Below, in pieces: positions 10,147 to 60,811 of a DNA stretch of 64,000 nt. Numbering within the stretch: the stretch's first letter is position 1; each line of letters opens with the position of its first letter. Source of the DNA: Terriglobia bacterium (GTDB lineage Bacteria > Acidobacteriota > Terriglobia > 20CM-2-55-15); NCBI GenBank assembly GCA_963664115.2, contig CAXWPJ010000012.1, positions 352,001-416,000 of the forward strand. Direction: 5' to 3'. The notes below the pieces were generated by a model. It was not told the DNA's origin and searched no databases. It saw nothing but the letters and a program-made list of their open reading frames with translations. The translations under genes and the position numbers were made by a program.

Positions 10147-10363
10147 CTAGTTACACTCGCCAGGCCACAGTGTGGATTGAAGTGTCCGTCCCCTTACGCG
10201 AGTTTAATATTGACTGCCCCGCCTCCGTGGGGTAAATGATGGGCTCTGAATTCGATCTGATGGCTTCAGCGGGACGCCGAGTTTCTTCTGGTAGAGGCGT
10301 ACCCGATGCTCGACCGGATCATCGATCAAACCTGTGTCGACCATGCAATCGAGGAGATACACC

Positions 10364-11164
10364 GTGAAATACGCGTCGAGAAAGAGTCAATCGCCGATCT
10401 TGAGGCTCCTTCTGTTTGGAGGGACCCTGCTCTTATCAAGTTCCTATAGCGCGGTCTCCGCCACACAAACGCCGACGCCGCATAACCCAAGCGTATCCGA
10501 CATCATCGAAACCGACGAAGGCGACCTGACGATCACGCCAATCGGCCATGCCAGCCTGATGATGGAACTTAACGGGCGCACGATACATGTCGACCCGGTC
10601 GGCGATTACTCGGAAATGAGTGACCAGAAAGCCGATATCATCATGATTACCGATATTCACGGTGACCACATGAACCCGGAGTCCGTAAGGTCGATCGCCA
10701 AGACGGGAGCCGTTGTGATTGCCCCGCGCGAAGTGTGGAACACGATCACGACCGCGACGGTTTATTTGAATGGTGAGACCAGCCGCATTACGCTGCCGAA
10801 CACGGTAGTCGGTGTCGAAGCCATTCCTGCCTACAATCTGACGCGCGGACCGGAAGAAGGCCAACTCTACCATCCCATGGGCCGGGGCCAGGGCTATGTC
10901 ATGACGATCGGCGGCACGCGTGTCTTCGTGTCGGGAGACACCGAATGTGTTCCAGAGATTCAGGCCTTAGAAAACATTGACGTCGCCTTTTTACCAATGA
11001 ACCTGCCCTTCACGATGACGCCGGAAGAGGCAGCGGAATGCGCGAAGGCCTTCCGGCCTTCGATCGTATACCCCTATCACTATCGTGGACAAGATCCTGA
11101 GGAATTCGCCAGCGCGCTCAGCGGCGAAAGCGACATTGAAGTTCGAATCCGGGAGTGGTATTAG
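10364..11164 (+). CDS. Secreted MBL-fold metallo-hydrolase (UlaG/UPF0173-like)
   Basis: GHAS, IHVDP, TDIHGDH, SGDT, FLPMNLPFTM, YPYHY; signal peptide; GAGGAG RBS before GTG. Confidence 0.88.
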   Translation: MKYASRKSQSPILRLLLFGGTLLLSSSYSAVSATQTPTPHNPSVSDIIETDEGDLTITPIGHASLMMELNGRTIHVDPVGDYSEMSDQKADIIMITDIHGDHMNPESVRSIAKTGAVVIAPREVWNTITTATVYLNGETSRITLPNTVVGVEAIPAYNLTRGPEEGQLYHPMGRGQGYVMTIGGTRVFVSGDTECVPEIQALENIDVAFLPMNLPFTMTPEEAAECAKAFRPSIVYPYHYRGQDPEEFASALSGESDIEVRIREWY

Positions 11165-11293: not shown

Positions 11294-11677
11294 ATGCAAC
11301 GTCTACTGACCGCTTTCGTTCTCGTCGCTCTCTTTGCGGGGGTCACCGCGGGAGCCCATCACTCCTTCGCCAGCTTTTACTTCGAAGACGATACGGTATT
11401 GATCGAGGGCGAATTGTTCGAGTTCAATTTCAGAAGCCCCCACGCGTGGCTCTACGTAATGGCCCAGGACGCGGACGGTGAAATGCGCTTGTATGCAGCC
11501 GAATGGGCCAACCCCAACCGCTTGGGCCGCCAGGGTGTCAACGAAGACACGCTCAGTCCCGGTGACCACCTCATCATTGCCGGCAGCCCCGGACGGGATC
11601 CATCCGAACACCAGATCCACCTGAATCGTATCGAACGCCCCGTGGACGGATGGACCTGGCTTCGGAATCGACCCTGA
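11294..11677 (+). CDS. DUF6152 family protein (paralog 1)
   Basis: Signal peptide ..TAGA|HHSFA, FRSPH, EWANP, LSPGD. Confidence 0.85.
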   Translation: MQRLLTAFVLVALFAGVTAGAHHSFASFYFEDDTVLIEGELFEFNFRSPHAWLYVMAQDADGEMRLYAAEWANPNRLGRQGVNEDTLSPGDHLIIAGSPGRDPSEHQIHLNRIERPVDGWTWLRNRP

Positions 11678-11795: not shown

Positions 11796-12299
11796 ATGGA
11801 TGTCCTCATCTGGTTCGAACAAAGCGCCTACGGCACGTGGCTACGCGAGTCGCCTTCGATGTGGGCCTTTCCATTGCCGTTAATCTTGCATGCCATCGGC
11901 ATGGGGTTCCTGGTCGGCACGAACGCCGCCCTCAATTTCAGAATCCTTGGTTTTGCCGCATCCATTCCGCTACGTTCGATGGAACGGGTCTTTCCTGTCA
12001 TGTGGTTCGGTCTGGTGGTCAACGTCCTGTCCGGCATTGCCCTGCTGATGGCGTACCCCATCAAGGCTTTCACGAATCCCGTCTTCTACATCAAATTGAT
12101 TCTCATCGCGCTTGCACTCAGCGTCCTGGCCAAGTTACGAAACTATGTTCGCGGGACCAGCTCGGACGATCTCGTCCCGAATAGAGTCAAGCTGCTTGCA
12201 AGCACCTCGCTCGTGCTCTGGGTCTCGGCAACAACGGCGGGTCGCTTGCTGGCATACACGTACAACCGCCTGACCAGCCAGGACGTTTTCTTTTTCTAA
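11796..12299 (+). CDS. DUF6644-like 4-TM membrane protein, subtype A
   Basis: LHAIGMGFLVG..RILG, NPVFYIKL, GRLLAY. Confidence 0.8.
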   Translation: MDVLIWFEQSAYGTWLRESPSMWAFPLPLILHAIGMGFLVGTNAALNFRILGFAASIPLRSMERVFPVMWFGLVVNVLSGIALLMAYPIKAFTNPVFYIKLILIALALSVLAKLRNYVRGTSSDDLVPNRVKLLASTSLVLWVSATTAGRLLAYTYNRLTSQDVFFF

Positions 12300-12301
12300 T
12301 T

Positions 12302-12814
12302 ATGACCGGCTTTCTCAGATCCCTGGACTTCGTGACATCCTTCACATTCTGGCTGGACAACTCGGCCCTATCGGTGTGGGTCATAAGCAACGGGTACTTG
12401 TGGCCTGCACTGGAGTCCATCCACTTCCTCGGACTTTCACTATTGATCGGAACCGTCGGATTATTTGATTTGCGTCTGCTCGGGTTCGCAAGGAACATCG
12501 AGCCAAAGACTCTCCATCGGCTCGTACCTCTGGGTGTGCTCGGGTACGGAATAAACGCGATCACCGGCGCCCTGTTTTTCGTTGGCGACACGGGACAATA
12601 CGTCTACAACGACGCGTTTCACTTCAAAATACTTTTCATGTTGCTGGCCGGTATCAACGTTGCTGTCTTCTATCTCACGACCTATCGGCAGGTTGGAGGG
12701 GTCAGCGCCGGGGGCCACACACCGCTGTTGGCCAAAATTATTGGTGGCATCTCCCTGGTGCTATGGTTGGGCGTCATCACTTGTGGCCGTTTGCTCACCT
12801 TCTACAGGCCTTAG
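12302..12814 (+). CDS. DUF6644-like 4-TM membrane protein, subtype B
   Basis: ESIHFLGLSLLIG..DLRLLG, FHFKI, GRLLTF. Confidence 0.82.
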   Translation: MTGFLRSLDFVTSFTFWLDNSALSVWVISNGYLWPALESIHFLGLSLLIGTVGLFDLRLLGFARNIEPKTLHRLVPLGVLGYGINAITGALFFVGDTGQYVYNDAFHFKILFMLLAGINVAVFYLTTYRQVGGVSAGGHTPLLAKIIGGISLVLWLGVITCGRLLTFYRP

Positions 12815-35926: not shown

Positions 35927-35936
35927 GAATCCAGGC

Positions 35937-40455: not shown

Positions 40456-40843
40456 TGGTTCCTCCTTGCGATCTGCAAGATTAGAGACGCGCCGAACAGG
40501 GCTCTTTATATACACCCGGGAAGCCTTACACGCAATCGGCATCCGCTGTGGCAAGCCGTTCGCTCGATAGCGTTTGCTGTTGCGGAACCATTCCCGGTGA
40601 ACCATCATAAGCGTCTTACCCATTACGTCCTATCCATCTACCAGAGGAGACCGCCATGCGTCGTCCACACTCACGCTATGCATTATCCGGCCTGATTACT
40701 GACCTGCCTGCCAGGAACGCCACAGCCGGAAACACGCTCGACGCCCTCATTCCCGGCGAACGCGGGGTCGACCTCGTCCGGAAAACGGGCGGTCCAGTGT
40801 TCGTTCGAGACGCGACTCCAGCCGCATCGGCGCGAAATCACGC

Positions 40844-46058: not shown

Positions 46059-47831
46059 TCACGGCGCTTCCGGCAGGGCAAAGGCATAAATTTCGTTATG
46101 ACCGCGAACCGTCTCCACGCCGGCCAGCTCTGCCGGCCCTCGCGTCCCGGAGGCGCCATCCCCCGTCAGGACGGCGACATATTGACGACCGTCCACGGCA
46201 TACGTGATCGTGCTGGTTTGGATAATGCCCCCGAGCACGGCTTCCCAAAGGATTTCGCCGTTGTCTGAATCGAAAGCGCGGAACCGTCGCGCCAGATCGC
46301 CCCAGAAAAGAAGGTCACCGCCCGTGACCAGAGCTGAACCATTGCCGGGAACCGGCTGCGTGTAGATCCGCTCCATTTCGCCCGTAGCAAGATCCACTTT
46401 GGCCATTCCCATAAATTCATCCGGATTGGAACCGGGTCGGACAACGCCGACCCTGGGGCCCCAACCACTTGGGTTATCCGCATTCGCTGTCATGTCCAGG
46501 CAGGAATCGTGAAACGGAATATAAAGCGCGTTTCTGCCGGGGTCATAGGCCGTGGACCAGTAACTTCTGGTGTTGTGGAAGCAGGTGAGGTGTCTTTCTC
46601 CATCCTCGAGGAACACATTGTCCCAATTGATGTGGGTGCGACCCGTTTCAACGTCGATATCGGAAATATTAAATTCTGGCACGTCGTAGGGGAACGGCAT
46701 GGCCCAGAGAAACTCGCCCGTCGCGCGGTCGATGATCCAAATGCCTCCACCCTCTCCAACGGCTACGACGGCATCCCGCTCTTCGCCTCGTGGTATCCCC
46801 GGGTTGATCCATTTCACGGCTGCGGGGTCGGGATCGAAGCGCGTCGTGATCAACGTGCGCTCGTGCAAATGGTCGGCGTCCCAGTCGTCGCCCGGAAGAT
46901 GCTGGTAATACCAGGCCAGCTCGCCGGTCTCGACGTCAATTGCCACCGTTGAATTACTGTAAAGATCGGCGGGCGCTGTCCGTGGCGTCCCGTCCGCGCT
47001 GCCATGGCGGGTCAACCGTGTATAAGGTTTCGGATTCGCAATTCCCCAAAAGGTGAGCTTTCTCTCCGGATCGTAAGACCCGGGCAGTCCCCAGGAACTC
47101 GCGACGCGGTCTTCGACGGGAACCTCACCCCAGGAGTCGCCACCGGGCGTTCCCGGCGCGGCCGTGTTGTAGAACTTCCAAACTTCTTCTCCGGTCAGTG
47201 CGTCATGCGCGACGATGAAGCAGCCGCCGCGCTCGGAACATGTGCGATTCGTAATCACCTTCCCGTCAGCAACGAGGACACCCCCGGTATGTCGCGTATT
47301 GCTGTCCAGCTCAAAAACCTGGGTTTCCCAGCGCACCTGGCCTGTGCGCACATCGAGCGCCACCAAATACCCGTCCGGTGCAGGATAGAAAACCAGATCG
47401 CTGTAGATGGCGATATTCTTCGTCCGAACGTTGACATAGTCCACAGCTTCGTCGGGCACTTCGCGCCAATATTCCCAGATTAGATCACCGCTCGTGGCAT
47501 CAAGCGCAAGGATTCCCGCGCCCGGGGCAACCAGATACATGATCCCGTCATAGACGATGGGCGTTGTTTCCTGCGCGCCACGGGGCAAGCCCCGCGACCA
47601 GGCCATGGCGAGTTGACCGACATTGTCCCGATTGATCTCGTCGAGCGGACTGAAGCGTTGCTCGTCAAAAGTGCGGTTGATCATCAGCCAGTCGGCCGGG
47701 TCGGGATTCAGAAGCATTGCATCGGTAACGGGCGTGTATTCGGGTTCTTGCGCGAATACCGGATACGCGATCAGGTTCAACAATACCGCAGCGCTTATTA
47801 GAACTGCCGCCCACTCCGCTTTAGTCTTCAT
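46059..47831 (-). CDS. PQQ-dependent dehydrogenase (beta-propeller)
   Basis: DWLM..R..QRFSPLDEIN..NV, QETTPIV, WYYQH..DDWDAD, ITYAVDGRQYVAV; signal peptide. Confidence 0.9.
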   Translation of the reverse strand: MKTKAEWAAVLISAAVLLNLIAYPVFAQEPEYTPVTDAMLLNPDPADWLMINRTFDEQRFSPLDEINRDNVGQLAMAWSRGLPRGAQETTPIVYDGIMYLVAPGAGILALDATSGDLIWEYWREVPDEAVDYVNVRTKNIAIYSDLVFYPAPDGYLVALDVRTGQVRWETQVFELDSNTRHTGGVLVADGKVITNRTCSERGGCFIVAHDALTGEEVWKFYNTAAPGTPGGDSWGEVPVEDRVASSWGLPGSYDPERKLTFWGIANPKPYTRLTRHGSADGTPRTAPADLYSNSTVAIDVETGELAWYYQHLPGDDWDADHLHERTLITTRFDPDPAAVKWINPGIPRGEERDAVVAVGEGGGIWIIDRATGEFLWAMPFPYDVPEFNISDIDVETGRTHINWDNVFLEDGERHLTCFHNTRSYWSTAYDPGRNALYIPFHDSCLDMTANADNPSGWGPRVGVVRPGSNPDEFMGMAKVDLATGEMERIYTQPVPGNGSALVTGGDLLFWGDLARRFRAFDSDNGEILWEAVLGGIIQTSTITYAVDGRQYVAVLTGDGASGTRGPAELAGVETVRGHNEIYAFALPEAP

Positions 47832-48199
47832 TACGATTCCTCCGGGGTCTTTCGACAGCTGTCGGACCGGGTCGAACACAGTGTTTTCAGCGTGACATGG
47901 GATGTCTATTCTCAAGCCCATGCGCGTGGATTCTGCACCCGAGATGAATTTGTATCGGGAGTATATCGCTGCATCTCGGCACAAACTACCCAAACATTTG
48001 CGAACGGATGTTGGAGATTCAGAGAGAAGCCTGTCAAACAGCCACCTGCTCCTTTCCTGGTGCAAGCGCGCCGGACCAAGAAAGAGGACTCGATGATTCG
48101 TTTCACGCTCTGCCAGGCCGTGATAAGCTCGCTCATGCTGGGACGTGTCGATAAGAAGAGCTGAACCGCAGAAAGCGATCCGGGAAATCCGGGAGGTCA

Positions 48200-48604
48200 G
48201 TGATGCGATGGGTTCTACTGCTGGTATTAGGTTTCGGGGCGTGGGCTCCGTTTGCGTACCCGCACCACTCTATTGCCGGCATGTATAACACGCGCGAAGA
48301 GGTCACGATCGAGGGGATCGTCGCCGAACTCCGATTCCGTAATCCACACCCGTTCCTGATCGTCAACGTCGGAGGTGCAGGTAGCCGGACGCAGTGGATA
48401 CTCGAGATGGATAATCGCCGAGAGATGGCCAGAATCGGTATGACGGACGAAACCTTGAGGCCCGGCGACCGCGTCATCGTCTCCGGCAACCCGTCCCACG
48501 ATGTGTCGCAGCGCATCTACATCCGCAAGCTTGACCGTCCTGCAGACGGCTTTGGATACGAACAGGTCGGCAACAGCCCCCGGATAAACACACGTTCCCG
48601 CTAA
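48200..48604 (+). CDS. DUF6152 family protein (paralog 2)
   Basis: ..FAYP|HHSIA, FRNPH, WILE, LRPGD. Confidence 0.85.
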   Translation: MMRWVLLLVLGFGAWAPFAYPHHSIAGMYNTREEVTIEGIVAELRFRNPHPFLIVNVGGAGSRTQWILEMDNRREMARIGMTDETLRPGDRVIVSGNPSHDVSQRIYIRKLDRPADGFGYEQVGNSPRINTRSR

Positions 48605-48736
48605 TCTTCCCTGAATCTTCGTAACGCCAAGCCGCTTTTCTCGACAGCAGTCGCCGCAGAGCGGCGAAGCGAAACACAGGTCACGAGAACAGTCCAAACC
48701 AAGCGTTACCGGTGAACCCTTTGCGTCTCGATAGCA

Positions 48737-48768
48737 TTGACAATCGCAGTCGTCAAAACTAGACTGCG
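48737..48768 (+). promoter_or_regulatory. Sigma70 promoter with overlapping dyad (candidate operator)
   Basis: TTGACA(48737-42)-N17-TAGACT(48760-65); CGCAGTC-N10-GACTGCG at 48745-48768. Confidence 0.65.
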
Positions 48769-48956
48769 GTAGAAGTCGATCACCTGAAGGCCGCCGACTG
48801 CCACTGTTACCGTAGGGCATGGGTGCGGTGCTCCCGAAAGGGGAAGCCTTGGCAGAGGTGGCGGCAAGACAATAAAGCACGCCGACTGGGGGTCCACACG
48901 GGTGAACTTCCACACGATTCGAATCCCTGTTCCGGCGTCGCTCAGGAGGGATCTAC

Positions 48957-49340
48957 ATGTTCCGAATCTTACAGCTTCTTCTGGTTTTCGGTTTTTGCTT
49001 CACAGCCTTTGCTGTGGCGCACCACTCTACGGCGGCGGTGTACTTCATGGACGACGAGCCCATCACACTGAAGGGAACCGTGACAAAAGTGGAGTGGCAG
49101 AATCCACATATATGGGCCTACATTGATGTGACCGATGAGACCGGGAACGTCACGAACTGGGAAGTGGAAATTCAAACCAATCCGGCCAGAATGTACAGGG
49201 CAGGCTGGTCCAAGGATTCATTAAAGGTTGGCGATGCCGTGACCGTGGAAGGTCTTCTCCCGAGAAACGCCGCCTTGAACCGAGTATTGAACCGGTCCCT
49301 GATTTTGCCGGATGGCAGAGAGTTGGGCAGCCGGCAGTAG
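48957..49340 (+). CDS. DUF6152 family protein (paralog 3)
   Basis: ..FAVA|HHSTA, WQNPH, WEVE, LKVGD. Confidence 0.88.
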   Translation: MFRILQLLLVFGFCFTAFAVAHHSTAAVYFMDDEPITLKGTVTKVEWQNPHIWAYIDVTDETGNVTNWEVEIQTNPARMYRAGWSKDSLKVGDAVTVEGLLPRNAALNRVLNRSLILPDGRELGSRQ

Positions 49341-49428
49341 CCGAAACCTGACCCACACGGTAAGAACCTGATGAGGCTGCGGTCTATCCGCAGTGATTCG
49401 AGGGGAAGAATCCCCAGGAGGTATCGGC

Positions 49429-50205
49429 ATGAGAATTTGCATTCAGCTTTCAGAAAGACCGCTCATCCTGCAGCTGTGTCTTGTGATTCTGGTCGGCACG
49501 GTGATGCTTGCCCCCGTCCCTGCTGCTGCGCAAGATTGGAATCCCGAGGATCTAGGAGGGATCTGGCGGACTTCCATACGGGACATCACACTGGGGATGC
49601 TGCCCGGCGAGGAGATCTCCTTTACTCCCTACGGCGCACAACAGCATAAGGCCTTCGATTTGCAGGTATATTCCAGGAGGGGATGCGAGATTAAGGGCGC
49701 TACGCGACAGCTGCTTTCGAACAGCCTCTCGATGTTCGTTCAGGCCCCCAGCCTTCAGATGATGGTGATATTACACGAGGACCACAACCGTTTTCGGGCA
49801 GTTTACATGGACGGCCGTGATCATCCCGAAGAAGTTTATGACATCCCGGAGCCCTTCGGACATTCGATTGGGCACTGGGAGGACGACACGCTCGTCGTGG
49901 ATTCGATTGGCTTCCGTGACACGACCTATTTGGACACGAACGGTCTCGGTCACAGTGCGCAACTGCATCTCACCGAAAGGTACCGGAGGACTGGGCCGGA
50001 CACGATCGAGTGGACCACCACGGTTGAGGATTCGCTCTTTTACACGCATCCCTTTACTTTTCGAAGCATCTTCACCCGCCAAACCGGTTTGCGGTTGATG
50101 ATGTATGACTGCGAAAACGAAAGAGATATCGAGCACCTGGAGTCCATAATTCGAGGTGATAACGAGATTCACCGGAATCCTGAAGTTTTTGTATTCCCCG
50201 AGTGA
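49429..50205 (+). CDS. Secreted hypothetical protein, DUF6152 partner type
   Basis: Signal peptide; GCEIKG, GHSIGHWEDDTLVVDSIGF, LHLTERYRR, YDCE. Confidence 0.8.
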   Translation: MRICIQLSERPLILQLCLVILVGTVMLAPVPAAAQDWNPEDLGGIWRTSIRDITLGMLPGEEISFTPYGAQQHKAFDLQVYSRRGCEIKGATRQLLSNSLSMFVQAPSLQMMVILHEDHNRFRAVYMDGRDHPEEVYDIPEPFGHSIGHWEDDTLVVDSIGFRDTTYLDTNGLGHSAQLHLTERYRRTGPDTIEWTTTVEDSLFYTHPFTFRSIFTRQTGLRLMMYDCENERDIEHLESIIRGDNEIHRNPEVFVFPE

Positions 50206-50234
50206 GTTCTGGCCTCGAAGACGTTCACTGCCTT

Positions 50235-50272
50235 GAAAGCCATCGTCGGGCCAACTCGGCGATGGCGCTTTC
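50235..50272 (+). terminator. Hairpin/terminator after the 48957-50205 operon
   Basis: gaaagccatcgtcgg..cggcgatggcgctttc. Confidence 0.5.
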
Positions 50273-50634
50273 GTCAACTTTCTAATCGTTTGTAGCCTCG
50301 AGCTTGATATACGCAGAGCCCGGCTGATGCTACCTCGGACGGCGTCCACAAATCGACGGAACAGCGCTTACCAATGCTCTGAGTGATTGGGACGCCGTAG
50401 TTTAAGCTCCTGCGCATCGAAAAAGCTACGGCACCGGCAACCGCGTTCTTTCAGTTCGTCAAACTCGTTCTTCAGAACGACGTCCCATCAGTCTGGTATT
50501 TGACAAGATACGCGTCGGGCTGGTCGGCCCGATAACGAAAAACCGACAGTTCTTCTCAGTTCATTACGGAAACTTCTGTGCGCGGGTATTATTTTCTGGC
50601 ACTATTGCGCGAGGTGAGAACCTTGGGAGGACAC

Positions 50635-51255
50635 GTGGCTTGGCTTAACAGACTCATTCCCGTAACAATCATTCTGTGTATTTCGCAGCCTGCTTTCGCG
50701 CAAAGCTGGATGACGCACGTCAGTCTGGAGGATCGCTTCAGCGTCAATCTTCCTGGTGAGCCTGAAGTAGAGGACCTCACCTACCCCTCGGAATATGGGG
50801 CCATATTCCCAGGACGGGTCTATATCTACGAGGATGGCTCAAACCGATATTCCGTCACCGTGATCGATTACACGGACGCGGAAAGAATACACGAGGAACG
50901 AACCAACAAAACCGAAGCCGACAGCCTGCCGATCTACTGGCAGATTGATGTGCGAGCATCTATCGCCTATGCAGCGTGGGGGTTCCGTCAAAGGGACGCC
51001 AAAGTCACCTATGATGCCTGGCACTACATAAACCTCATTGAAGGGCACCAGCTACAGCTTACGAATGCAGATCAATCCCGTACTTTCGCGGCGATTTATC
51101 TGCACGAAAGCCGTCTCTACATCCTGGAGGCCACCGTACCGCAGGGTGCGGCGCCGCCGGGACTGTTTCAGCAATCCCTAACTATCCTCGATGAAGAGGG
51201 CAACAGGGTGCGCTACGATTCGATCTACTCCAACCAGTTACCAACCGGACCCTGA
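50635..51255 (+). CDS. Secreted hypothetical protein co-transcribed with DUF6152
   Basis: GGAGG RBS, signal peptide ..PAFA|QSW; FSVNLPGEP, EGHQLQLTN, RLYILEATVP. Confidence 0.75.
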   Translation: MAWLNRLIPVTIILCISQPAFAQSWMTHVSLEDRFSVNLPGEPEVEDLTYPSEYGAIFPGRVYIYEDGSNRYSVTVIDYTDAERIHEERTNKTEADSLPIYWQIDVRASIAYAAWGFRQRDAKVTYDAWHYINLIEGHQLQLTNADQSRTFAAIYLHESRLYILEATVPQGAAPPGLFQQSLTILDEEGNRVRYDSIYSNQLPTGP

Positions 51256-51273
51256 TGACGAGGAGGAAACGAT

Positions 51274-51645
51274 ATGCAGTACAAATCGTTAGGTCTTGCT
51301 GCCCTGTGTGTGGTTTTCCTGGCCGTACCGGCTCGGGCACACCATTCACACGGCAACTACCAGATGACGGAGTACACGATCTTAAACGGAATAGTGAAGG
51401 AAATTCACTGGATCACGCCGCATAGTTGGATCTACCTCGAAGTCATCGACGACGATGGTGAGCCCACAACGTGGGCGCTTGAAGGCGCCGGCGTGACTCA
51501 GCTCAGAAGGCTCGGATGGACAGAAGACAGCGTCAAAGTGGACGATCCCATCTCCGTGCGCTGCCACCAGCTCAGAGACGGCTCCAATGGCTGTCTTCTG
51601 GGATTTGTGACGCCGGAAGGCGGCGTCGAGAAAATGTTCGACTAG
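51274..51645 (+). CDS. DUF6152 family protein (paralog 4)
   Basis: ..PARA|HHSHGNY, WITPH, WALE, plus a Cys pair (RCH..GCL). Confidence 0.87.
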   Translation: MQYKSLGLAALCVVFLAVPARAHHSHGNYQMTEYTILNGIVKEIHWITPHSWIYLEVIDDDGEPTTWALEGAGVTQLRRLGWTEDSVKVDDPISVRCHQLRDGSNGCLLGFVTPEGGVEKMFD

Positions 51646-51773
51646 AATGATCGGCTAGGATGACCGGGGCGCCCTGCCTGACTCCTTTGCCTTCACATCT
51701 TCAAACGAATTCCGGACGATGTGTATCTGGGATGGTGGCAGTATCGCCCTCGGTTACAGTCGCTTCCGCTTGA

Positions 51774-52793
51774 CTATTTCTTGACGTATTTCCGCAAGGC
51801 CATCCCGCCAGTGAGTGACGCATAGATGTTGCCATCGGCGTCCACGACGACGCCTTCCTGAGATCCGTCGGGATCGGGGTCGTCTATGAACGTGATAACC
51901 TCACCGTTTTCCACGCTGCCAATCCGAATACCTTCCTTCCACGGTGTGTTCCTCTCGTCGTCTGAACTTGAATCGGCAACGTAGAGGATATCGTTGCTGT
52001 CGATGTAAATGCCGCTCGGCCGTCCGAACTGTGGCCACTCGTCCAGAAAAGTCCCGTTCTGATCAAAAATCTGCACGCGCTCGTTTCCACGGTCGCCGAC
52101 GAAAAGCCGACCCCGGGAGTCCATGGCGAGCGTGTGCGGCGTCTCAAACTCTCCGGGTGCTGTTCCCTTAGTTCCCCAGGTCTTGATAAACTGGCCGTTC
52201 TTCGAGAACTTCACGATCCGGGCCGATTCCCCGCCGTGGCCATCCCCAACGAAGATGTCGCCGTTGGGCGCGACGAAGACCGCGGACGGCTGATTGAACT
52301 CATCCGGACCATTCCCTGCTACTCCAGCCTTGCCGAGCGTCATCAGAAGCTGGCCATCCGGACTGAACTTGAACACCTGGTGGCCCTTGCCGTTTCGCCT
52401 CGGGTCGATGCCGTCCGGTCCTTCATGGTCGGTCACCCACACGTTGCCTTCGGCGTCGATGTGGATGCCGTGAGGACGCACGAACATGTCCGCGCCAAAA
52501 CTCTTCATCAGGGTTCCGGAAGGATCAAACTTCAAGATAGGTGGCAGGTCAGAGCCGACGCAGTCATTCTGGCCACAACGCTCGAACAGCCAGATGCTGC
52601 GACCGTCCCCATCGAGAGCCATCGCAACCGTGGAGCCAATCGTCCGCCCCTCGCCTAGCTTGAAGAAACTCTGATTCATAGAATAGGGATCGGGCCGGGC
52701 ATTGATCTCTTCGTTGATTTGCCCGGAAGCCCCTTGGCCGGACGCGACAAACGCGCCCACCAAGACCCAGCTCACGAACTTCCCCTGCCACAT
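51774..52793 (-). CDS. NHL-repeat PAL-like protein, secreted
   Basis: RPHGIHID, FNQPS, VGDGHG, TPHTLAMD, GDRGNERVQ. Confidence 0.85.
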   Translation of the reverse strand: MWQGKFVSWVLVGAFVASGQGASGQINEEINARPDPYSMNQSFFKLGEGRTIGSTVAMALDGDGRSIWLFERCGQNDCVGSDLPPILKFDPSGTLMKSFGADMFVRPHGIHIDAEGNVWVTDHEGPDGIDPRRNGKGHQVFKFSPDGQLLMTLGKAGVAGNGPDEFNQPSAVFVAPNGDIFVGDGHGGESARIVKFSKNGQFIKTWGTKGTAPGEFETPHTLAMDSRGRLFVGDRGNERVQIFDQNGTFLDEWPQFGRPSGIYIDSNDILYVADSSSDDERNTPWKEGIRIGSVENGEVITFIDDPDPDGSQEGVVVDADGNIYASLTGGMALRKYVKK

Positions 52794-53109
52794 AGCAACC
52801 CCCTTCTGATTACTGCCTTTTGAAATGAGGCGGAAAAACTGGTTGAAGGATATTCGACGAGGGATTCAGAAGCAATCAAACTCTCGATGCCTGAGCACAC
52901 AAAGCGGCGTAAAGAACACACAAGTCAGCCGGAGGCCACTTGTTTTTGAGACGCACGGATTTCATGTTAGTCTCGCCATCAGCAATCACCAGGACGCAGG
53001 CCCCACTGCCCTGGACGACCTACTCCCGGGTAAAGAGGCGGCACGAAGCCTCCGGGCAATGACCGAGATCCGAGCTTAAAAATATGATTCGGGCAATGAA
53101 GGAGGCTAA

Positions 53110-53568
53110 ATGACCATTTCAATGAATCGCTTTGTCGTGTGCATAGCGGCCGTGGGAGTTTTGTTGCTGGCCGGTTTGAACGCGGCGACATTCGCGCATC
53201 ACGGAGGGTTTGTCAATTGGCAGCAGGAAAGTTTGATCGGCCCGGTCACCTTTGTAGCCACGAGTTTTGCGTTTCGTTTTCCGCATCCCCAGATATCCGG
53301 TGAGATCAGGGACGAGACCGGACAGGTCAGGCCATGGGTCATTGCACTGCGTCAGACGCCCACCGGTTTACGGGCTCAAGGCTGGAATCGGACTTCTATC
53401 AAGTCTGGAGACACCCTCGATTTGACCTATAGCCCGCATGTATCCGCAGAGAACGTCGGTATAGCCCGCCGCGTGGTCGTCAACGGAGAATTTCTCCCCA
53501 TCGAACCGGGTGATGAGGAATGCCGCACGACGACGACGCCCTACCGCCGCTGCGGAGACGTGCAATGA
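53110..53568 (+). CDS. DUF6152 family protein (paralog 5, divergent)
   Basis: ..ATFA|HHGGF, FRFPH, GWNRTSIKSGD. Confidence 0.75.
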   Translation: MTISMNRFVVCIAAVGVLLLAGLNAATFAHHGGFVNWQQESLIGPVTFVATSFAFRFPHPQISGEIRDETGQVRPWVIALRQTPTGLRAQGWNRTSIKSGDTLDLTYSPHVSAENVGIARRVVVNGEFLPIEPGDEECRTTTTPYRRCGDVQ

Positions 53569-53651: not shown

Positions 53652-54470
53652 ATGCACAGAGTCTATTGCATGGTCTGGGTTGTAGCGATGGCAGCCGGTA
53701 TGCTTTCTTCAGTAGCTCAAGCGGTGCAGGAGGCCGGTGACCCACGTCCGGGAAATGCGGCCGCCTTCGACCCCCACGATTTTTCTGGACACTGGCACCG
53801 CGAGACGCCCCTCGTCACCTTCGGTGTTGTCCCGACTGTCGCGAACACCACGATCGCGGAAGCTCCGTTTACAGCGGAGGGTAAGGCCCGCTTCGACAGC
53901 AATAAGCCGGGCTACGGCCCCAGAAGAAAACTCGAGAGGAACGATCCCTTGGGACGCTGCGAGCCCATGGGCTTGGTTCGGAATCTTGTCGCTGAAATTA
54001 CTGAGCCCCATCCGACGTGGCAAATTGTTCAGACCGCCGACAGGATCATCCAGTTTTTCGAGTATCGACACGACTGGCGCGAAATATGGATGGATGGGCG
54101 GAGTCTTCCCACCGCGGACGAAGTTTATCCAAAATGGAACGGTTATTCTGTAGGGCGTTTCGAAGGAGAGACGCTTGTTGTGGAGTCGATCGGTTTAGAC
54201 GAGAGAAGCTGGATCGACAAATTCGGCTATCCTCAATCCGAACAGATGCACGTCGAGGAACGCTATCGGCGTGTGGACATCAATACTCTGGAGCTCAGGA
54301 TGACGATCACGGATCCGCTGATATATGCCGGTCCTTGGGAGAGCGACATAAAGGTATTCAGCCTGGACCGTGAGAAAGCCAGTCGATGGGACGAGCAGAT
54401 CTATTGCGTACCCGCCGAGGAATTCTCGTATCAGGAATTAATCGAGTCCGGTAACGTGGTCCCACGGTGA
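53652..54470 (+). CDS. Secreted hypothetical protein, DUF6152 partner type (paralog of 49429)
   Basis: RCEPMG, GYSVGRFEGETLVVESIGL, MHVEERYRR, IYCVP. Confidence 0.8.
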   Translation: MHRVYCMVWVVAMAAGMLSSVAQAVQEAGDPRPGNAAAFDPHDFSGHWHRETPLVTFGVVPTVANTTIAEAPFTAEGKARFDSNKPGYGPRRKLERNDPLGRCEPMGLVRNLVAEITEPHPTWQIVQTADRIIQFFEYRHDWREIWMDGRSLPTADEVYPKWNGYSVGRFEGETLVVESIGLDERSWIDKFGYPQSEQMHVEERYRRVDINTLELRMTITDPLIYAGPWESDIKVFSLDREKASRWDEQIYCVPAEEFSYQELIESGNVVPR

Positions 54471-54557: not shown

Positions 54558-56735
54558 CTAGCGGGCCGGTCTCAGGTATTTGACTTCCCCATCACCGCTA
54601 TAGAAAGCCCAGGTCCCAGCGAGCGGAACCTGGCCAACGCCCGGTTGTGTCCAGTCGCAAACGCCCTCTGGAAAACTTTCTCGAAGGCCGGTGAGTTCAG
54701 CGGCAGCCAATGACCGCGTGTAGTCGCTCCGATCGACGGGCTTGAGCGTGCACTTCAAGACATCGTTGGCCGCTGGGGCTCCCGCCACCATGCGGGCGTC
54801 CGTGCCGATTGGGAACAGTTCCCCGCAACGATCCATGTCGGTGATCTTCGTTGTCGCCGAGGTGTAGCATGCATCGACAAAGCCGGCCGGCCGATGGGCC
54901 CCGACCTTCTGTGCCTGCCCCAGCTCCGAGCTATCCGCCAGTACGCGGGTGACCCACTGGTCCAGAACGGCAACGGCTTCCGGCGAAACGATCCCCAGGA
55001 TCGACTCGGGTCCACGGTGCCCAACCTCGTGCATGACGAACCTGACGTGGTTGTCGATATTTCCATTGGATTTCATCAGCCGGGCACGAGTGACCAGCGA
55101 ATGGTAGCCGTCATGCACGTCGACGTCACGGGCTTCGCCCGGCGGGCATGGCGCGGCTGTGCAGATGCCATCCGTGTATCCGCGGACGTCGAGGATTGGG
55201 ATAGTCCTCAAGCCACCGTCACCGGTATTGAGACGCCCGGTCTCGTAAGCGACCCGCACCGCGTCCGGATTGGCGTGAGCCCGCTCGCCGGACACAATCA
55301 CACCGTTGATGTCATGACCGCCAATGCGTGCGTTCAGATCTGCAAATTGGTCGAAGGTGATGATGCCGTCGTTGAATGCCTTCAAGCCATACTGGACACC
55401 GACGTTATCCCAGGGGCTGCGAGCGAAGCCCGTCGCCGGATCGATGCCATATACATTGACTAGATTGTCCTGGTATGTGCAACGTACGTCCGCCCATAGC
55501 TGGGGGTTGGAAGACATTTGCTCGACCACCGAAGCGTCGCAGTTGTCCGGCGACAGGTTGGGGAACCGCGTCGCAGGTTGGGTGCAGTAGCCGAAGGTAA
55601 TCTTACCGGACACCTCGCGCATCTGGATGTCAGTCAACGGCATTTCGGTGTTGTCAAAATAGCGGACCAAAAGGTTGCAGTCGTTGATCGGCGTGTTGAA
55701 ACTCAGCACGTCCGGATAGCTCCGCCACGGCATGATCCCATCGTAAAGGCCCGGGTAGTCCTGGGCGATGAGGTGCTGCGACATCGAACCACCCGAGGTG
55801 CCCATGCTGAGTGTCAATTCCGGCGGACCGAACAGTTCAATGAACCGCTCCTTGATCTTCGCCGCAGTCTCGGCCTGGACAACGTGGTTGGTGTTGGCGC
55901 CCGTCACCATCAACGACCCGCCGGCGAGGGCGTAGCCGGCGCGAATCAATGACTCGTGCAGGTTGTTGTTCTCCCCTCCCACGTAGCCCTTGCTCGCGTC
56001 GAGCGTGCCGATCGAGGTTCCCATGTGATAGGAGGCCCTCACGCCACCGCGGTGGGACATGATCAGCTTGCCGTTCCAACCAGTCCCGTTACTGACCACC
56101 GTTGGCAGCGGTCCCGCCGCCGGGTCGTGTAACAAACTGATCACGTATGCTGACCGGTTGATGATGCCCTTCTCGTACCAATTGATGAGAGGCACCGTCT
56201 GACCAGTCATCGTGGTCGTCATATCAATATCGTTGGGTCGCGGGCGCGCAGGTTCAAAATCCTTCCACGCGCCACCGGTGCTCCGATAAAAATAGCCGGT
56301 GACCGAGGGCGCCGCGCAGCTTTCATCGGTGGCGGGAGCCAGCCCGTGGGCTTCGTTCTCGCAGACGAATGGTGTTTGCTGCGGCCCCGCGAACAAGGTG
56401 CCGTTGATCGGGTGGTTGGTCAGCGTGAGCGTTGCTTCGATGCCGCCAGCGGACACGGCCAGCGCGTTGTCGCCGTCGCTGAGCCCGTCGACCATTCCGA
56501 TCCATCCGCCGCTTCCATCGGCGACCCAGGCTACCTGGACATCCATACCAGCGACGCTTGCCGTGGGAGCGCCATTCGCCCCGGTGACCCTCACCAGCGC
56601 GTCGCCGCCGGTCACCAGTTCCGGAAACGACGACAAGACCTCAACCTTCAAGTCCTGGCTCCAGGCCGGAACGCCCGCAAGTACCTGGAAAAGGAAAACG
56701 CACGACGCCGCGAAGCGCACAACTTTCCGTGTCAT
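54558..56735 (-). CDS. DUF6351-like secreted alpha/beta-hydrolase (tannase-like)
   Basis: GPQQTPFVC, WNGKL, GTSGGS nucleophile elbow, YPGLYDG, DNVGVQYGL, FPEGVCDW. Confidence 0.78.
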   Translation of the reverse strand: MTRKVVRFAASCVFLFQVLAGVPAWSQDLKVEVLSSFPELVTGGDALVRVTGANGAPTASVAGMDVQVAWVADGSGGWIGMVDGLSDGDNALAVSAGGIEATLTLTNHPINGTLFAGPQQTPFVCENEAHGLAPATDESCAAPSVTGYFYRSTGGAWKDFEPARPRPNDIDMTTTMTGQTVPLINWYEKGIINRSAYVISLLHDPAAGPLPTVVSNGTGWNGKLIMSHRGGVRASYHMGTSIGTLDASKGYVGGENNNLHESLIRAGYALAGGSLMVTGANTNHVVQAETAAKIKERFIELFGPPELTLSMGTSGGSMSQHLIAQDYPGLYDGIMPWRSYPDVLSFNTPINDCNLLVRYFDNTEMPLTDIQMREVSGKITFGYCTQPATRFPNLSPDNCDASVVEQMSSNPQLWADVRCTYQDNLVNVYGIDPATGFARSPWDNVGVQYGLKAFNDGIITFDQFADLNARIGGHDINGVIVSGERAHANPDAVRVAYETGRLNTGDGGLRTIPILDVRGYTDGICTAAPCPPGEARDVDVHDGYHSLVTRARLMKSNGNIDNHVRFVMHEVGHRGPESILGIVSPEAVAVLDQWVTRVLADSSELGQAQKVGAHRPAGFVDACYTSATTKITDMDRCGELFPIGTDARMVAGAPAANDVLKCTLKPVDRSDYTRSLAAAELTGLRESFPEGVCDWTQPGVGQVPLAGTWAFYSGDGEVKYLRPAR

Positions 56736-56835
56736 CGTATCCCCCTGTCGCATTGTCCGTGCGACGTCCGCCGCACCCGACACTTTATGATCGGTCAGTT
56801 ATACCACTGGCGAAGGCCACGCTACTCGCACCGTC

Positions 56836-57525
56836 TCAATCGGCGGCGAAGCAATAAAATCGTCCAGCGCCGCCCGTGTCGTTGAACGCCTCCAGGCTGC
56901 AACCCGCAGTCGAGTGCGAAGAATTCCAGGAAGTATTCCAGCCACTCATGCGGTCATGGTGGCCGATCATCCCATGGGCATCGGCGCTATCGGAGGTCCA
57001 GTTGTTGCAAGTGCGGTCGTCGGCCTGATTGGACATGCCACCCGGAAAGGCCCGGCCATGGGAATCCGATCCCGTAAGCATGTCGTGTTCTTGCGGGGTG
57101 CCTGCGGCACGACCGAAGCCGTTTACAAGGTCGCCCCCTTCGGTCAACGCAGTTCGCACATTGATGAGGTTGGTGTCACGCTGGACATCGCCGTGAAGAT
57201 CTGCGAGGCTGCCCGCCACCATGGTCCCGTTGGCATTGAACCAAGGTCCGTTGCCGATACGATCCCGTGCGTTGACGGCCGGAGTGGATTGGGTGCCCTG
57301 GGTGCTGAGATAAGCGCGCCAGGTTCGATTGCCCGCGCCGACGGCAGCCGCCAGACTCTGGCACTCGGCGTCGGCACCAGTCAGGCCTCCGAGGTTGCCA
57401 CTGTGCGTGGTGCTCGTGACAAAGAAACCCATCGGTGGCTGCGATTCCTGGCCTTGGGCTAAATTAGCGGCCGCGCTCAATGCGATGGCCACCACTGCGG
57501 CAAGAACGATGTGTCTATGGGTCAT
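56836..57525 (-). CDS. Secreted lectin-like (endostatin/C-type lectin fold) protein
   Basis: GNLGGLTGADAECQ, WRAYLS, ARDRIG.GPW, CNNWTS, FYCFA. Confidence 0.8.
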   Translation of the reverse strand: MTHRHIVLAAVVAIALSAAANLAQGQESQPPMGFFVTSTTHSGNLGGLTGADAECQSLAAAVGAGNRTWRAYLSTQGTQSTPAVNARDRIGNGPWFNANGTMVAGSLADLHGDVQRDTNLINVRTALTEGGDLVNGFGRAAGTPQEHDMLTGSDSHGRAFPGGMSNQADDRTCNNWTSDSADAHGMIGHHDRMSGWNTSWNSSHSTAGCSLEAFNDTGGAGRFYCFAAD

Positions 57526-58028: not shown

Positions 58029-58225
58029 CGGATACACCTCAAGTGGCAACCTGCCGCTCGGTCGGCTAAGCCACGCGCGGCAGAAGATTCCTCCGTCGAG
58101 GTGTACATCCTCGTTCCGTCTGAATGTCATGTCAATAAGATTCACCGCATGGCAGTTCTGAATTGCCCGAACATCTTTTCTCGACTAGCATCTAGGTGCT
58201 AAACGCTCATACGAAACGACGGACC

Positions 58226-60811
58226 ATGATCGGAAAGAAGCTCGCGCACTACGAAGTCACCGGCAAGCTTGGAGAGGGCGCCATGGGCGCCGTCTATCGC
58301 GCCCGGGACTTGCGACTCCACCGGGATGTCGCATTGAAGGTCCTGCCTGAGTCCTTCAGCAAAGATCCGCACCGCATGGTGCGGTTCGAGCGGGAAGCCC
58401 AGGTGTTGGCCTCCATCAACCATCCCAACGTCGCGGCGATCTACGGTCTGGAAGAATCCGGAGGCGTTCGATGTCTCGTGCTGGAGCTGATCGAGGGTCC
58501 GACTTTACGAGAGCACCTCGATAGAAATTCTCTGTCTTTCAGGCAAGCGATTGACATGGCACTGCAAATCGCCCGTGCTCTGGAAGCGACGCACGCAAAG
58601 GGAATCACACATCGCGACCTGAACCCCGCCAATATCAAAATTCTCGAAAACGGAATAATAAAGGTTCTGGATTTCGGCCTGGCCAAAGTGTTCATGGACG
58701 ACGAGAAGACCTCCCCCCTGTCGACCAAAGCGGGTGTGCTGCTGGGAACGCCTGCATATATGAGTCCGGAGCAGGTACGGGGCGGTGCGGTCGACAGCCG
58801 CGCGGACATCTGGGCCTTTGGGTGTGTCCTATTCGAGATGCTCGCCGGGGAGCACGCGTTTCTCAAGAGCACGGTACCGGATACCTTGACCACAGTTCTG
58901 GATCGGGAGCCCGAGTGGGGGAAGCTGCTTCAAAGCACGCCGCCCGCTCTTAGGCGACTACTCGGTCGATGCCTTGCTAAGGAACCCCAACATCGGCTGC
59001 GTCATATTGGCGATGCCATCCTGGAGCTGGAAGAAGCGACTGAAGAAGCCGGTCGCACAGCGTCGGCCAGCATCCCCGTCTCGCAGGGTCGTTGGAGATC
59101 AGCCGCAGCAGTCGGTCTGCTCGGCCTGGTGGTCGGCCTCATGGTGGGCATTCGTGTGTGGGACACCACGCCCGCTGAATTCAGTCTCATTCGCCAGCAG
59201 ATACAGATTACTGACGAGCCCGCCGTTGAAACCTGGCCCAGCCTCTCCCCCGATGGCCAGAACCTGGTGTATGCGGGCAACGGCTCCGGCAATTGGGATA
59301 TTTACTTCAGGCGCGTCGATGGACAGACGGCCATCAACCTGACCGAAAACTTCGAAGGTGATGACCATCAGCCCGCGCTCTCGCCCGATGGCGGACGGAT
59401 CGCGTTCCAATCCAATCGTGACGGCTTGGAAGGCATCTTTGTCATGGGAGCCACAGGGGAATCGATTCGGCGGTTGACGGACTTCGGAGCAAACCCCGCC
59501 TGGTCGCCCGACGGAACGGAAATCGTGTTTGCGACGCTGGAAGTCGAAAGCGACCCCACCACTCGCGGCGGCCTTGACGGAGAGCTCTGGGTCGTCAACG
59601 TGGAAAGTGAGGGTACTCGCCAGCTTGCGACAGCGGGCCGGGACGCAACACAACCCAGTTGGTCACCGAATGGATATCGAATCGCATTCTGGGGTCTGGA
59701 CAGGAAACGCGGCTCCGGGCAGCGAGATATCTGGACAATTCCAGCCGAGGGGGGTGAACCCACTGCGGTCACCGAGGACGTTTATACCGACTGGAACCCC
59801 GTCTGGTCACCCGATGGTCAATACCTCTATTTCTCAAGCGACCGCGCCGGTGGAATGAATCTTTGGCGCGTCCGGATCGACGAACGCACCGGAATTCCGA
59901 CGGGCCAACCGGAACAGATAACCACCGGTGGCTTTTCCCAACAGTTACACCTGACCTTGGCCGGCTCCCAACTGGCCTACGCCGAGCGTCGATCCCGTAC
60001 CAACATTTACGCAGTGGATTTCGATCCCGAAACCGGGCGGGTCGTCGGTGAACCCCAGGCCATCACTCGAGGTTCCCGCGTTGTTGACCACCCCGACGTT
60101 TCCAGAGATGGCCAATGGTTGACGTACATGATCCGAGGCGCGCGGGAGTCCATCATGGCAAGCAGGACGGACGGAAGCGACCTGCGTCGGCTCACGAATG
60201 ATGCGTTCAAGAATAGGGGTCCGCGATGGACTCAGGATGGTACACAGATCGCCTTCTATTCGGATCGAAGCGGTAGCTATGGAATTTGGGTGATGGATCC
60301 CGACGGAAGCGGCCAGACACAAATCACGAACAATCCGGAAACTCCGATAGTCAACCCCGTCTGGTCACCCGACGGTGCAAGGCTGGTTTACGCGTACAAC
60401 GATGTTACTTATGTCGTCGAAGGCCCGGATTGGAGCGAACAGACGCCCACCCGGGTCATGGAGTCGCGGCCGGCCGATTGGTCTCCAGATGGGCGCAGAC
60501 TGGCCAATTCATCCACCCTCACGAACCCGTGGCCGCTTCGGATTCACTCCTTCGATACGGGCGAAACCCTGGAGGTCTCGACTCTCCCGAGCTTCGGCGG
60601 CCGCTGGCTGGACGATCGCAGGCTCGTTTTCGCTTCCGACGGCGAAATCCGATTGATCGACGTTGACTCCGGCCTGTCCCAGCGATTGTTGGACGGCCCC
60701 CGGGGCGAGACCATCAACGTCGCTGGATTTTCACCCGACCGGAGAACGCTCTATGTTCTGCTGAGCGCCGAACCGGAGTCCGACATCTGGCTCATGACTC
60801 TGGGCCCCTAG
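58226..60811 (+). CDS. Hanks-type Ser/Thr kinase with TM helix and TolB/PD40 beta-propellers
   Basis: LGEGAMGAVY, VALK, HRDLNPAN, DFGLAK, YMSPEQ, DIWAFG; repeated WSPDG. Confidence 0.92.
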   Translation: MIGKKLAHYEVTGKLGEGAMGAVYRARDLRLHRDVALKVLPESFSKDPHRMVRFEREAQVLASINHPNVAAIYGLEESGGVRCLVLELIEGPTLREHLDRNSLSFRQAIDMALQIARALEATHAKGITHRDLNPANIKILENGIIKVLDFGLAKVFMDDEKTSPLSTKAGVLLGTPAYMSPEQVRGGAVDSRADIWAFGCVLFEMLAGEHAFLKSTVPDTLTTVLDREPEWGKLLQSTPPALRRLLGRCLAKEPQHRLRHIGDAILELEEATEEAGRTASASIPVSQGRWRSAAAVGLLGLVVGLMVGIRVWDTTPAEFSLIRQQIQITDEPAVETWPSLSPDGQNLVYAGNGSGNWDIYFRRVDGQTAINLTENFEGDDHQPALSPDGGRIAFQSNRDGLEGIFVMGATGESIRRLTDFGANPAWSPDGTEIVFATLEVESDPTTRGGLDGELWVVNVESEGTRQLATAGRDATQPSWSPNGYRIAFWGLDRKRGSGQRDIWTIPAEGGEPTAVTEDVYTDWNPVWSPDGQYLYFSSDRAGGMNLWRVRIDERTGIPTGQPEQITTGGFSQQLHLTLAGSQLAYAERRSRTNIYAVDFDPETGRVVGEPQAITRGSRVVDHPDVSRDGQWLTYMIRGARESIMASRTDGSDLRRLTNDAFKNRGPRWTQDGTQIAFYSDRSGSYGIWVMDPDGSGQTQITNNPETPIVNPVWSPDGARLVYAYNDVTYVVEGPDWSEQTPTRVMESRPADWSPDGRRLANSSTLTNPWPLRIHSFDTGETLEVSTLPSFGGRWLDDRRLVFASDGEIRLIDVDSGLSQRLLDGPRGETINVAGFSPDRRTLYVLLSAEPESDIWLMTLGP

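Follow-up and report, generated by a model that had tools for sequence, protein, structure and literature searches.

The question raised by this locus is why a 64,000-nucleotide stretch of a Terriglobia bacterium genome (contig CAXWPJ010000012.1, positions 352,001 to 416,000; hereafter the window) encodes five diverged proteins of the DUF6152 family that appear to start with two histidines after signal cleavage, and what those histidines may do. The open reading frames (ORFs) of all five paralogs are present in the window and each protein lies above the gathering cut-off of PF19649 (27 bits). A Pfam scan of the five at E <= 0.001 gave DUF6152 only, with no match to the lytic polysaccharide monooxygenase (LPMO), CopC, YcnI or PCuAC families. 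The original prediction had described a new histidine-brace family of five paralogs at 48200..53568. Four copies lie in that interval, but the fifth is 37 kb upstream, 11294 being its start codon, and five holds as a count for the window only, since the host genome contains 125 matches. The main point, which that first reading missed, is that DUF6152 is one half of a heavily expanded multi-gene module, in which its partner is an unnamed secreted protein with a predicted barrel fold.

The features read from the five proteins were largely borne out. The quoted cleavage contexts are exact and the (-3,-1) signal-peptidase rule fits four of them; AYP|HH of paralog 2 (48200) breaks it, and because of this Pro at -1, which none of the other 121 unique genome copies shares, it is uncertain where paralog 2 is cut. 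The second P-H, expected some 25-30 residues further on, was located with its His at mature residue 29, 29, 30, 28 and 30 in paralogs 1 to 5, respectively. The W/YxxE motif is present in four of the five, and paralog 5 has WVIA in its place and so lacks the Glu, as had been stated. Both the third N-terminal His and the Cys pair ascribed to paralog 4 exist, but the Cys pair is not unique to it, as paralog 5 carries one in its tail (Cys109/Cys119, mature numbering).

The conservation of the putative site was analysed in 120 aligned unique copies of the host genome, which share 30% mean identity and include one C-terminal fragment aligned as gaps. His1 was found in 119 copies, His2 in 120, Pro29 in 118, His30 in 120, Trp47 in 108 and Glu50 in 96. 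Weighted over 663 sequences, the conservation of His1, His2 and His30 is 0.996, 0.998 and 0.99, respectively, and that of the Glu is 0.87; position 8 is Tyr (46%) or Phe (44%) and Arg60 is kept in 78%. Entire subfamilies have Thr, Ser, Gln or Gly at the position of Glu50. Of the 119 full-length genome copies, 114 conform to the (-3,-1) rule immediately before His1. When Ala is strictly demanded at -1, 104 copies fit before His1, no other offset between -8 and +6 reaching more than 45, and the hydrophobic core of the leaders spans -20 to -7. Lipoprotein anchoring and Tat export were rejected, as no lipobox occurs in the 119 copies and the two twin-Arg matches are spurious, lying upstream of the start. 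None of the 554 other predicted secreted proteins of the host genome begins with His-His, and nine begin with His (by a crude motif-based signal call), which argues that the His-His starts are not a matter of chance.

Natural controls for the role of the free N-terminus were provided by repeat domains and fusions. HH and the PH-His are kept in 519 of 521 N-terminal DUF6152 domains with a visible leader and all three His in none of the 11 internal repeat domains; one N-terminal copy (P0449) is without all three His together. The set comprised 541 domains from fetched proteins and loci, with nine truncated ones set aside and 16 weak-leader domains of the N-terminal group assigned by eye, and it was drawn with His-bearing queries and is biased towards His retention. 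The two-domain proteins are P0241-P0246, P0251, P0257, P0273 and P0318; their internal domain always lacks part of the triad and often retains HH or the PH-His. Fusions with the barrel place DUF6152 first in 8/8 cases of the host genome, in 9/9 among 20 stretches chosen for their Pfam score and a long frame, and in 234/234 of a set biased by its DUF-first query, whereas separate DUF6152 and barrel genes occur in both orders (46 and 26). The loss of the triad in every internal repeat and the DUF6152-first order of all fusions seen argue that the free N-terminus matters. Together with the near-invariant His1, His2 and His30, the cleavage register and the covariation described below, these observations indirectly support a metal site that would be unmasked by signal cleavage.

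The fold was predicted for mature paralog 3 with AlphaFold2 (predicted local distance difference test score, pLDDT, 93; predicted template modelling score, pTM, 0.84; residues 1-10 at 85). The model has strands 15-26, 31-38, 44-51, 73-79 and 88-95 with a helix (55-60) between strands 3 and 4. Its Foldseek matches are oligonucleotide/oligosaccharide-binding (OB) fold domains throughout, with a best E of 9e-4, and the best VIA fold match is 7r4w (Z 9.4, root mean square deviation 2.7, 82 residues). DUF6152 is thus predicted to be a five-stranded OB barrel. A profile search of the PDB with DUF6152 gave no significant sequence match, an ESM Atlas search returned DUF6152 or unnamed clusters only, and CopC, LPMO, YcnI, CusF, CcmE, ZinT and nitrobindin are none of them among the fold matches listed for DUF6152 and the barrel, although their absence from such a listing excludes none of them. 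The positive match to OB barrels speaks against an immunoglobulin-like beta-sandwich for DUF6152. CusF, CcmE and YgiW/BOF are periplasmic OB-fold proteins; the His/Met ligands of CusF are absent in DUF6152. Covariation recovered the strand registers 36:46, 34:48 and 38:44, by which His30, Trp32 and Glu50 share an outer face. Of all pairs in the domain, Tyr8-Glu50 has the second-strongest covariation, and Val7-Pro81 and Thr4-Thr53 also rank high. Since residues 4-8 are linked in this way to residues 50-53, the N-terminal segment is likely to be placed on the OB ligand face, close to His30 and Glu50. The covariation and strand register thereby support a convergence of the His residues, which is a statement on proximity and not on ligation. 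The proposal of a new histidine-brace family accordingly survives in part: a signal-unmasked N-terminal-His site has indirect support, but the predicted OB scaffold is unlike that of the known brace proteins, and a brace in the strict sense, with copper in a T-shaped N3 geometry, would be a conjecture.

The barrel partner was analysed next to DUF6152 throughout the host genome, where it forms a family of 145 ORFs, 125 of the 129 testable ones having a hydrophobic leader. No Pfam, NCBIfam or PDB sequence match was found for it. A same-strand barrel gene is immediately adjacent to 86 of 117 unfused DUF6152 genes, about 6 being expected. The identity matrices of 72 unambiguous DUF6152-barrel pairs are correlated (Mantel r 0.64, the best of 2000 permutations being 0.14); without close pairs r is 0.56, and nearest neighbours agree in 33/72. 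The correlation and this agreement indicate that DUF6152 and barrel were duplicated as units. The model of a natural DUF6152-barrel fusion has a pLDDT of 94 and a pTM of 0.89 over 311 residues, which implies a confident, if modelled, packing of DUF6152 on the barrel. The second domain is predicted as a nine-strand barrel with a helical lid, and it matches fatty acid-binding proteins (FABPs) and the luciferase nanoKAZ with Z 8.2-9.0 over about 105-117 residues, which are middling scores. Its N-terminal GxW strand has the G in 134 and the W in 121 of 146 aligned genome barrel domains. The partner of paralog 3 has the conserved Cys pair, an Arg, GxSxGxWxxDxLVV, Glu-Arg and Asp-Pro. The invariant residues are two Cys, Arg, Glu, Ser, Gly, Trp and Asp, with no His, and Arg196 and Glu254 covary. 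Inter-domain covariation (338 paired sequences, effective 265) recovered the intra-domain hairpins, and its top inter-domain pairs are scattered with no enrichment of lid or tail. A partner-derived metal ligand near the C-terminal Cys was also considered and rejected, as no conserved candidate, be it an invariant His or an acidic residue, and no compensation for the loss of the Glu were seen.

The size of the expansion was then established. The genome of the window (4.89 Mb, 97% complete) has 125 DUF6152 matches, 124 of them over the cut-off, and DUF6152 with its barrel partner accounts for 262 of 4391 crudely called genes (about 6%), the largest gene cluster of the genome; the next largest family, the metallo-beta-lactamase (MBL) fold, has 83 genes. 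DUF6152 is carried by 15 of 18 genomes of the same taxonomic family, five of these with at least 112 matches, and by 18 of 201 genomes of a phylum-wide sample; it was not found in 14 control genomes. The host genome also has ten matches over the cut-off to TIGR03436, an acidobacterial family, which point to Acidobacteriota. A profile search of public sequences gave 15,934 clusters at 50% identity, and named records with a DUF6152-associated barrel include Gammaproteobacteria (Rariloculaceae), Acidobacteriota, Alphaproteobacteria and Gemmatimonadales. Four copies in the host genome are broken or oddly duplicated, namely a truncation (C2:991476-991892), a frameshift with a local repeat (C5:116676-117190), a fragment (C6:30390-30674) and a 12-residue tandem duplication (C12:439511-440074), and insertion sequences flank several identical copies found on separate contigs. 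The odd copies are consistent with ongoing turnover or assembly errors.

The genes that persist where the family is small were examined in 12 minimal loci, taken out of 20 stretches as those from genomes with a single DUF6152 match (the other eight were multi-copy or without the gene). The order barrel-barrel-DUF6152 was seen in 10/12 and DUF6644, a family of membrane proteins, in 11/12, the twelfth locus ending at a contig end. A cytochrome c'-like CxxCH gene occurs in 9/12 (below the Pfam cut-off, E about 1e-3) and a pyrroloquinoline quinone (PQQ)-type gene in 6/12, at least three of which carry an N-terminal haem c motif. In the recurrent cluster (L221, L223-L226, L228-L231), a haem c-PQQ or PQQ dehydrogenase, two barrels and DUF6152 are convergent with the cytochrome c'-like gene and a DUF6644 pair. 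Cultured Sphingomonadales carry 1-3 copies of DUF6152, whose neighbours are TonB receptors or catabolic genes of the monooxygenase, sulfonate or acyl-CoA kind. In Sphingobium TomTYG65, flavin monooxygenase and sulfonate genes and a TonB receptor surround two copies of DUF6152, one barrel and a DUF6644 pair. Croceibacterium atlanticum combines one barrel and a TonB receptor with two copies of DUF6152, and in Novosphingobium humi genes of acyl-CoA catabolism adjoin DUF6152 and a DUF6644 pair. In Comamonas antarctica, DUF6152 is followed by DUF6644 (by annotation). Four metatranscriptome runs, which belong to three studies, contain contigs that match parts of the window between 48.1 and 53.4 kb; one run has a contig bridging paralog 3 and its barrel and another bridging the neighbouring gene F19 and paralog 4, and one run labelled as a sponge metagenome has three contigs that are 99% or more alike. 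These runs were chosen for holding the window stretch and may contain DNA, so they are weak evidence of expression.

From these results, it is very probable that the His cluster binds a metal or metal cofactor of some kind. The leading reading, which we hold tentatively, is a mononuclear periplasmic redox metalloenzyme with DUF6152 as the constant metal subunit and the barrel as the variable pocket. In this enzyme, signal cleavage would free the amine of His1, and the short N-terminal helix is predicted to pack on the OB ligand face by His30 and Glu50. One metal, probably copper or nickel, would be held by the amine and imidazole of His1, by His30 and by His2. Glu50 and Tyr/Phe8 may serve as tunable second-shell or weak ligands, the Tyr/Phe being reminiscent of the axial residue of LPMOs. 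The barrel, having no invariant His, would bind a small organic substrate, and electrons could be moved by the DUF6644 membrane pair and by the cytochrome c'-like and PQQ proteins of the minimal cluster. About 120 duplications of the pair would then have produced a library of specificities for varied organic compounds; 125 diverged copies would seem to exceed any need of metal housekeeping. A bolder form of the enzyme reading, possible but doubtful, makes the DUF6152-barrel pair a superfamily of periplasmic copper (or nickel) oxygenases or oxidases, a bacterial small-molecule counterpart of the LPMOs. If this were true, a His-His brace on an OB-fold would sit at the mouth of an exchangeable FABP-like substrate barrel, fed with electrons by the DUF6644 pair and quinohaemoproteins, and with more than 100 copies per genome in uncultured Acidobacteriota and Gammaproteobacteria the expansion would serve the attack on diverse recalcitrant organic matter.

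Several observations weigh against the redox enzyme. The Glu is missing in 24 of the 120 copies, and the proximity of the His residues to each other is drawn from strand register and covariation only. The fold matches of the barrel are, as given above, middling, and fold likeness shows no function; a barrel next to DUF6152 is missing in the clade of paralog 4 and in 2/12 minimal loci. The genomes with a single copy are related to each other and not independent. In the host genome, PQQ genes are not enriched near DUF6152 (5/20 within 3 kb vs 30% of same-region genes), cytochrome c'-like genes are at least 4 kb away, and CxxCH genes are modestly enriched (23 vs 13.8 +/- 3.6, maximum 25 in 300 draws). 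CopC, PCuAC and CopD were not found in the host genome, so nothing singles out copper. NiFe hydrogenase was not found either, there is one haem-copper oxidase, and urease is represented by a 41-position partial match only. Three HupE/UreJ-2 genes (C9:94459-95820, C9:431790-432572 and C7:75222-76280) each encode a His right after the predicted signal peptide, as in the anglerases, but HupE/UreJ-2 is present in 18/18 genomes of the family, including those without DUF6152, and does not track it. The four N-terminal-His families described in the available part of PMC12537917 have weak or no oxidase or peroxidase activity and were assigned to metal transport, and most non-LPMO brace variants seem tied to copper transport in the available part of PMC10952591.

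The strongest competitor, unlikely though to be taken seriously, is a non-catalytic periplasmic carrier resembling CopC or the anglerases, which would pass copper or nickel between a CopD-like DUF6644 and the cognate partner. The host genome has 21 DUF6644 copies, mostly in tandem pairs, and 16 of these lie within 3 kb of DUF6152, compared with 12% of all genes and 30% of same-region genes. Their presence agrees with that of DUF6152 in 30/31 relatives by profile, these being kin and not independent and the thresholds being different. The Glu-less HHGW subfamily (L232, L240) and the Comamonas copy stand beside DUF6644 with no barrel seen in the stretch covered, and CopC, PCuAC and CopD were not found in the host, which also counts in favour of a carrier. 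Furthermore, the characterised non-LPMO N-terminal-His proteins are mostly carriers, as far as the available portions of PMC12537917 and PMC10952591 go. The barrel, however, has no invariant His, Met or free Cys to receive a metal, and it is difficult to see why each partner would need its own carrier, in 125 co-diverged versions. A DUF6644 profile built from the 21 genome copies also did not detect six CopD proteins, in what was a small test. The DUF6644 copies conserve one His, one Lys and Trp..Gly-Arg, and the His and Lys make a pattern that resembles haem b-binding HemJ and CopD. DUF6644 may be a membrane component that handles haem b or a metal.

A metal-assisted binding or sensing device, in which the DUF6152 metal caps the polar end of a barrel ligand for TonB uptake or kinase signalling with no chemistry, is distinctly unlikely. 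Most FABP-like barrels are binders, 3/4 of the cultured loci viewed have flanking TonB receptors, and the expansion fits many ligands equally well. In the host genome, however, no enrichment within 3 kb was found for TonB-type genes (8/38), ABC ATPases (4/46) or response regulators (4/39), and what the minimal cluster retains are haem c, PQQ and DUF6644 genes and not transporters. It is improbable that the His residues and free amine ligate haem, another tetrapyrrole or a cofactor held in the barrel in place of a bare metal ion. CcmE is a periplasmic OB-fold haem chaperone; UnaG, a bilirubin-binding FABP, appears with other ligand-holding FABPs in the fold matches of the barrel, and the minimal cluster has recurrent haem proteins. 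A haem axial site nevertheless uses fewer donors than three invariant His and an amine, and neither CcmE nor nitrobindin was listed, an absence that does not amount to exclusion. Very improbable is a site without metal, where the His cluster and amine would serve in acid-base catalysis or anion binding by a hydrolase or lyase on the OB face. OB faces do bind anionic ligands, Arg60 and Trp47 are nearby in sequence, and hydrolase families are co-expanded (83 MBL and 19 amidohydrolase genes); dependence on a free N-terminal His after cleavage is nonetheless the described hallmark of metal chelation (PMC12537917, PMC10952591, available portions). The least credible is the "possibly binuclear" site of the original prediction with three His and a bridging Glu, for although the invariant His and the Glu share one face by strand register and covariation and a 10-member clade has a fourth His, there are only five donors (amine, three His and a Glu that whole subfamilies swap), which suit one metal, no further conserved ligand comes from the partner, and the PmoB site with its three His has itself been revised from dinuclear (PMC10952591, available portion).

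The system was compared with known ones. DUF6152 appears to work like a signal-unmasked N-terminal-His site, and by sequence it is not a member of the LPMO, CopC, YcnI or PCuAC families. According to the available part of PMC10952591, the histidine-brace proteins (LPMOs AA9-AA17, CopC, PmoF1, PmoB site B, X325/Bim1 and YcnI) likewise have signal cleavage directly before a conserved His1, with a further conserved His and an optional carboxylate. DUF6152 differs from these beta-sandwich proteins in its predicted OB barrel, its invariant His2, its obligate-looking partner and the lack of a family match. The signal-strapping families DUF4198, DUF6702, Ang-1 and Ang-2 are also secreted with His1 after cleavage and bind nickel or copper, and the three His of DUF6702 (His1, 28 and 32) are spaced similarly to His1/2/30 of DUF6152; they differ in being beta-sandwiches, in which His1 is conserved to 65-100% and redox activity is low or absent (PMC12537917, available part). 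DUF6152 is not named in the available part of PMC12537917 or in the supplements searched. OB-fold proteins (the SSB/PriB class by fold) share the five-stranded barrel, but DUF6152 carries an N-terminal His-His segment that likely sits on the ligand face. With the FABP/calycin barrels, including the Oplophorus luciferase nanoKAZ/NanoLuc, the predicted barrel of the partner, with its N-terminal GxW strand and helical lid, aligns at the middling scores given above, whereas the partner is periplasmic and has a conserved Cys pair and a buried Arg-Glu pair. The catabolic paralog expansions of SAR202 are similar as very large families proposed to widen the organic substrate range, but they concern known enzyme families, while the families expanded here are without assigned function (PMC6946804 and PMC5395668, available portions).

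In the literature searched, which lacks most subscription papers, no mention of DUF6152 or of DUF6644 was found and no paper joins histidine brace, OB-fold and copper; the His-His terminus, OB-fold, barrel partner, DUF6644 link and 125-copy expansion of DUF6152 are in none of the papers found. Pfam gives DUF6152 no function. Two families of unassigned function, DUF6152 and the barrel, make up about 6% of the host's genes. If the site binds metal, it would be a new scaffold and a new His-His ligand set for N-terminal-histidine chemistry. If the pair is an enzyme, it may represent a major route of organic-matter processing, so far unknown, by abundant uncultured bacteria of soil, sediment and sponges. 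DUF6152 is amenable to direct test, given the small proteins, the natural fusions and the low copy number in cultured Sphingomonadales.

Table 1. Coordinates of the DUF6152 genes, their partners and context genes in the window
Feature	Position	Strand	Details
DUF6152 paralog 1	11294..11677	+	TAGA|HHSF, His1 at 11357, SPH, YAAE; 68.6 bits
DUF6152 paralog 2	48200..48604	+	FAYP|HHSI, His1 at 48263, NPH, WILE; Pro at -1; 67.6 bits
DUF6152 paralog 3	48957..49340	+	AVA|HHST, His1 at 49020, NPH, WEVE; 87.9 bits
DUF6152 paralog 4	51274..51645	+	ARA|HHSH, His1 at 51340, TPH, WALE, Cys75/Cys85; 96.3 bits
DUF6152 paralog 5	53110..53568	+	TFA|HHGG, His1 at 53197, FPH; 30.8 bits
Unnamed secreted barrel partner of paralog 3	49393..50205	+	likely start 49429
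Unnamed secreted barrel partner of paralog 5	53652..54470	+	
Unnamed secreted protein F19	50578..51255	+	adjoins paralog 4; start codon uncertain
Metallo-beta-lactamase-fold gene	10334..11164	+	upstream of paralog 1
DUF6644 membrane protein A	11796..12299	+	conserved His in first helix, Lys, Trp..Gly-Arg
DUF6644 membrane protein B	12302..12814	+	weak Pfam match; same genome family
PQQ-type dehydrogenase	46059..48065	-	divergent from paralog 2; context gene

The other neighbours of the five paralogs are summarized in Table 1. The F19 family (about 215 residues) has 13 copies in the host genome, all within 3 kb of a DUF6152 gene, and no Pfam, NCBIfam or PDB match was found for it; its fold may, as a guess, be PsbP/Mog1p-like. 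All 10 copies of the paralog 4 clade start with HH(S/A)H and adjoin F19 instead of a barrel, and at least 9 of the 10 have the Cys pair. As the whole clade shares this neighbour, the extra His and Cys pair of paralog 4 mark a switch of partner. The clade of paralogs 1 and 2 has eight members, five of which have an MBL gene directly upstream, these MBL genes being of another family. Paralog 1 itself sits between its MBL-fold gene and the DUF6644 pair with no adjacent barrel.

Other secreted families are co-expanded in the DUF6152 regions, and this holds genome-wide in the host, for example at L160. They comprise 83 MBL-fold proteins (55 with HxHxDH), 28 NHL propellers, 27 DUF5916/CBM9-like proteins, 20 PQQ dehydrogenases, 19 amidohydrolases and 13 DUF1554/endostatin-like proteins. 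The window further contains a two-partner secretion (TPS) pair at 30366-38234 (-), consisting of a ShlB/FhaC-type transporter and a 1337-residue TPS-domain protein and adjoining a TPR-CHAT protease gene, and a di-haem cytochrome c-like gene at 39463-40623 (-). Downstream of paralog 5 there are a tannase-like DUF6351 gene at 54558-56783 (-), a DUF1554/endostatin-like secreted protein at 56836-57525 (-) and a Ser/Thr kinase fused to a PD40 propeller at 58196-60811 (+), the last with about 55 related genes in the genome.

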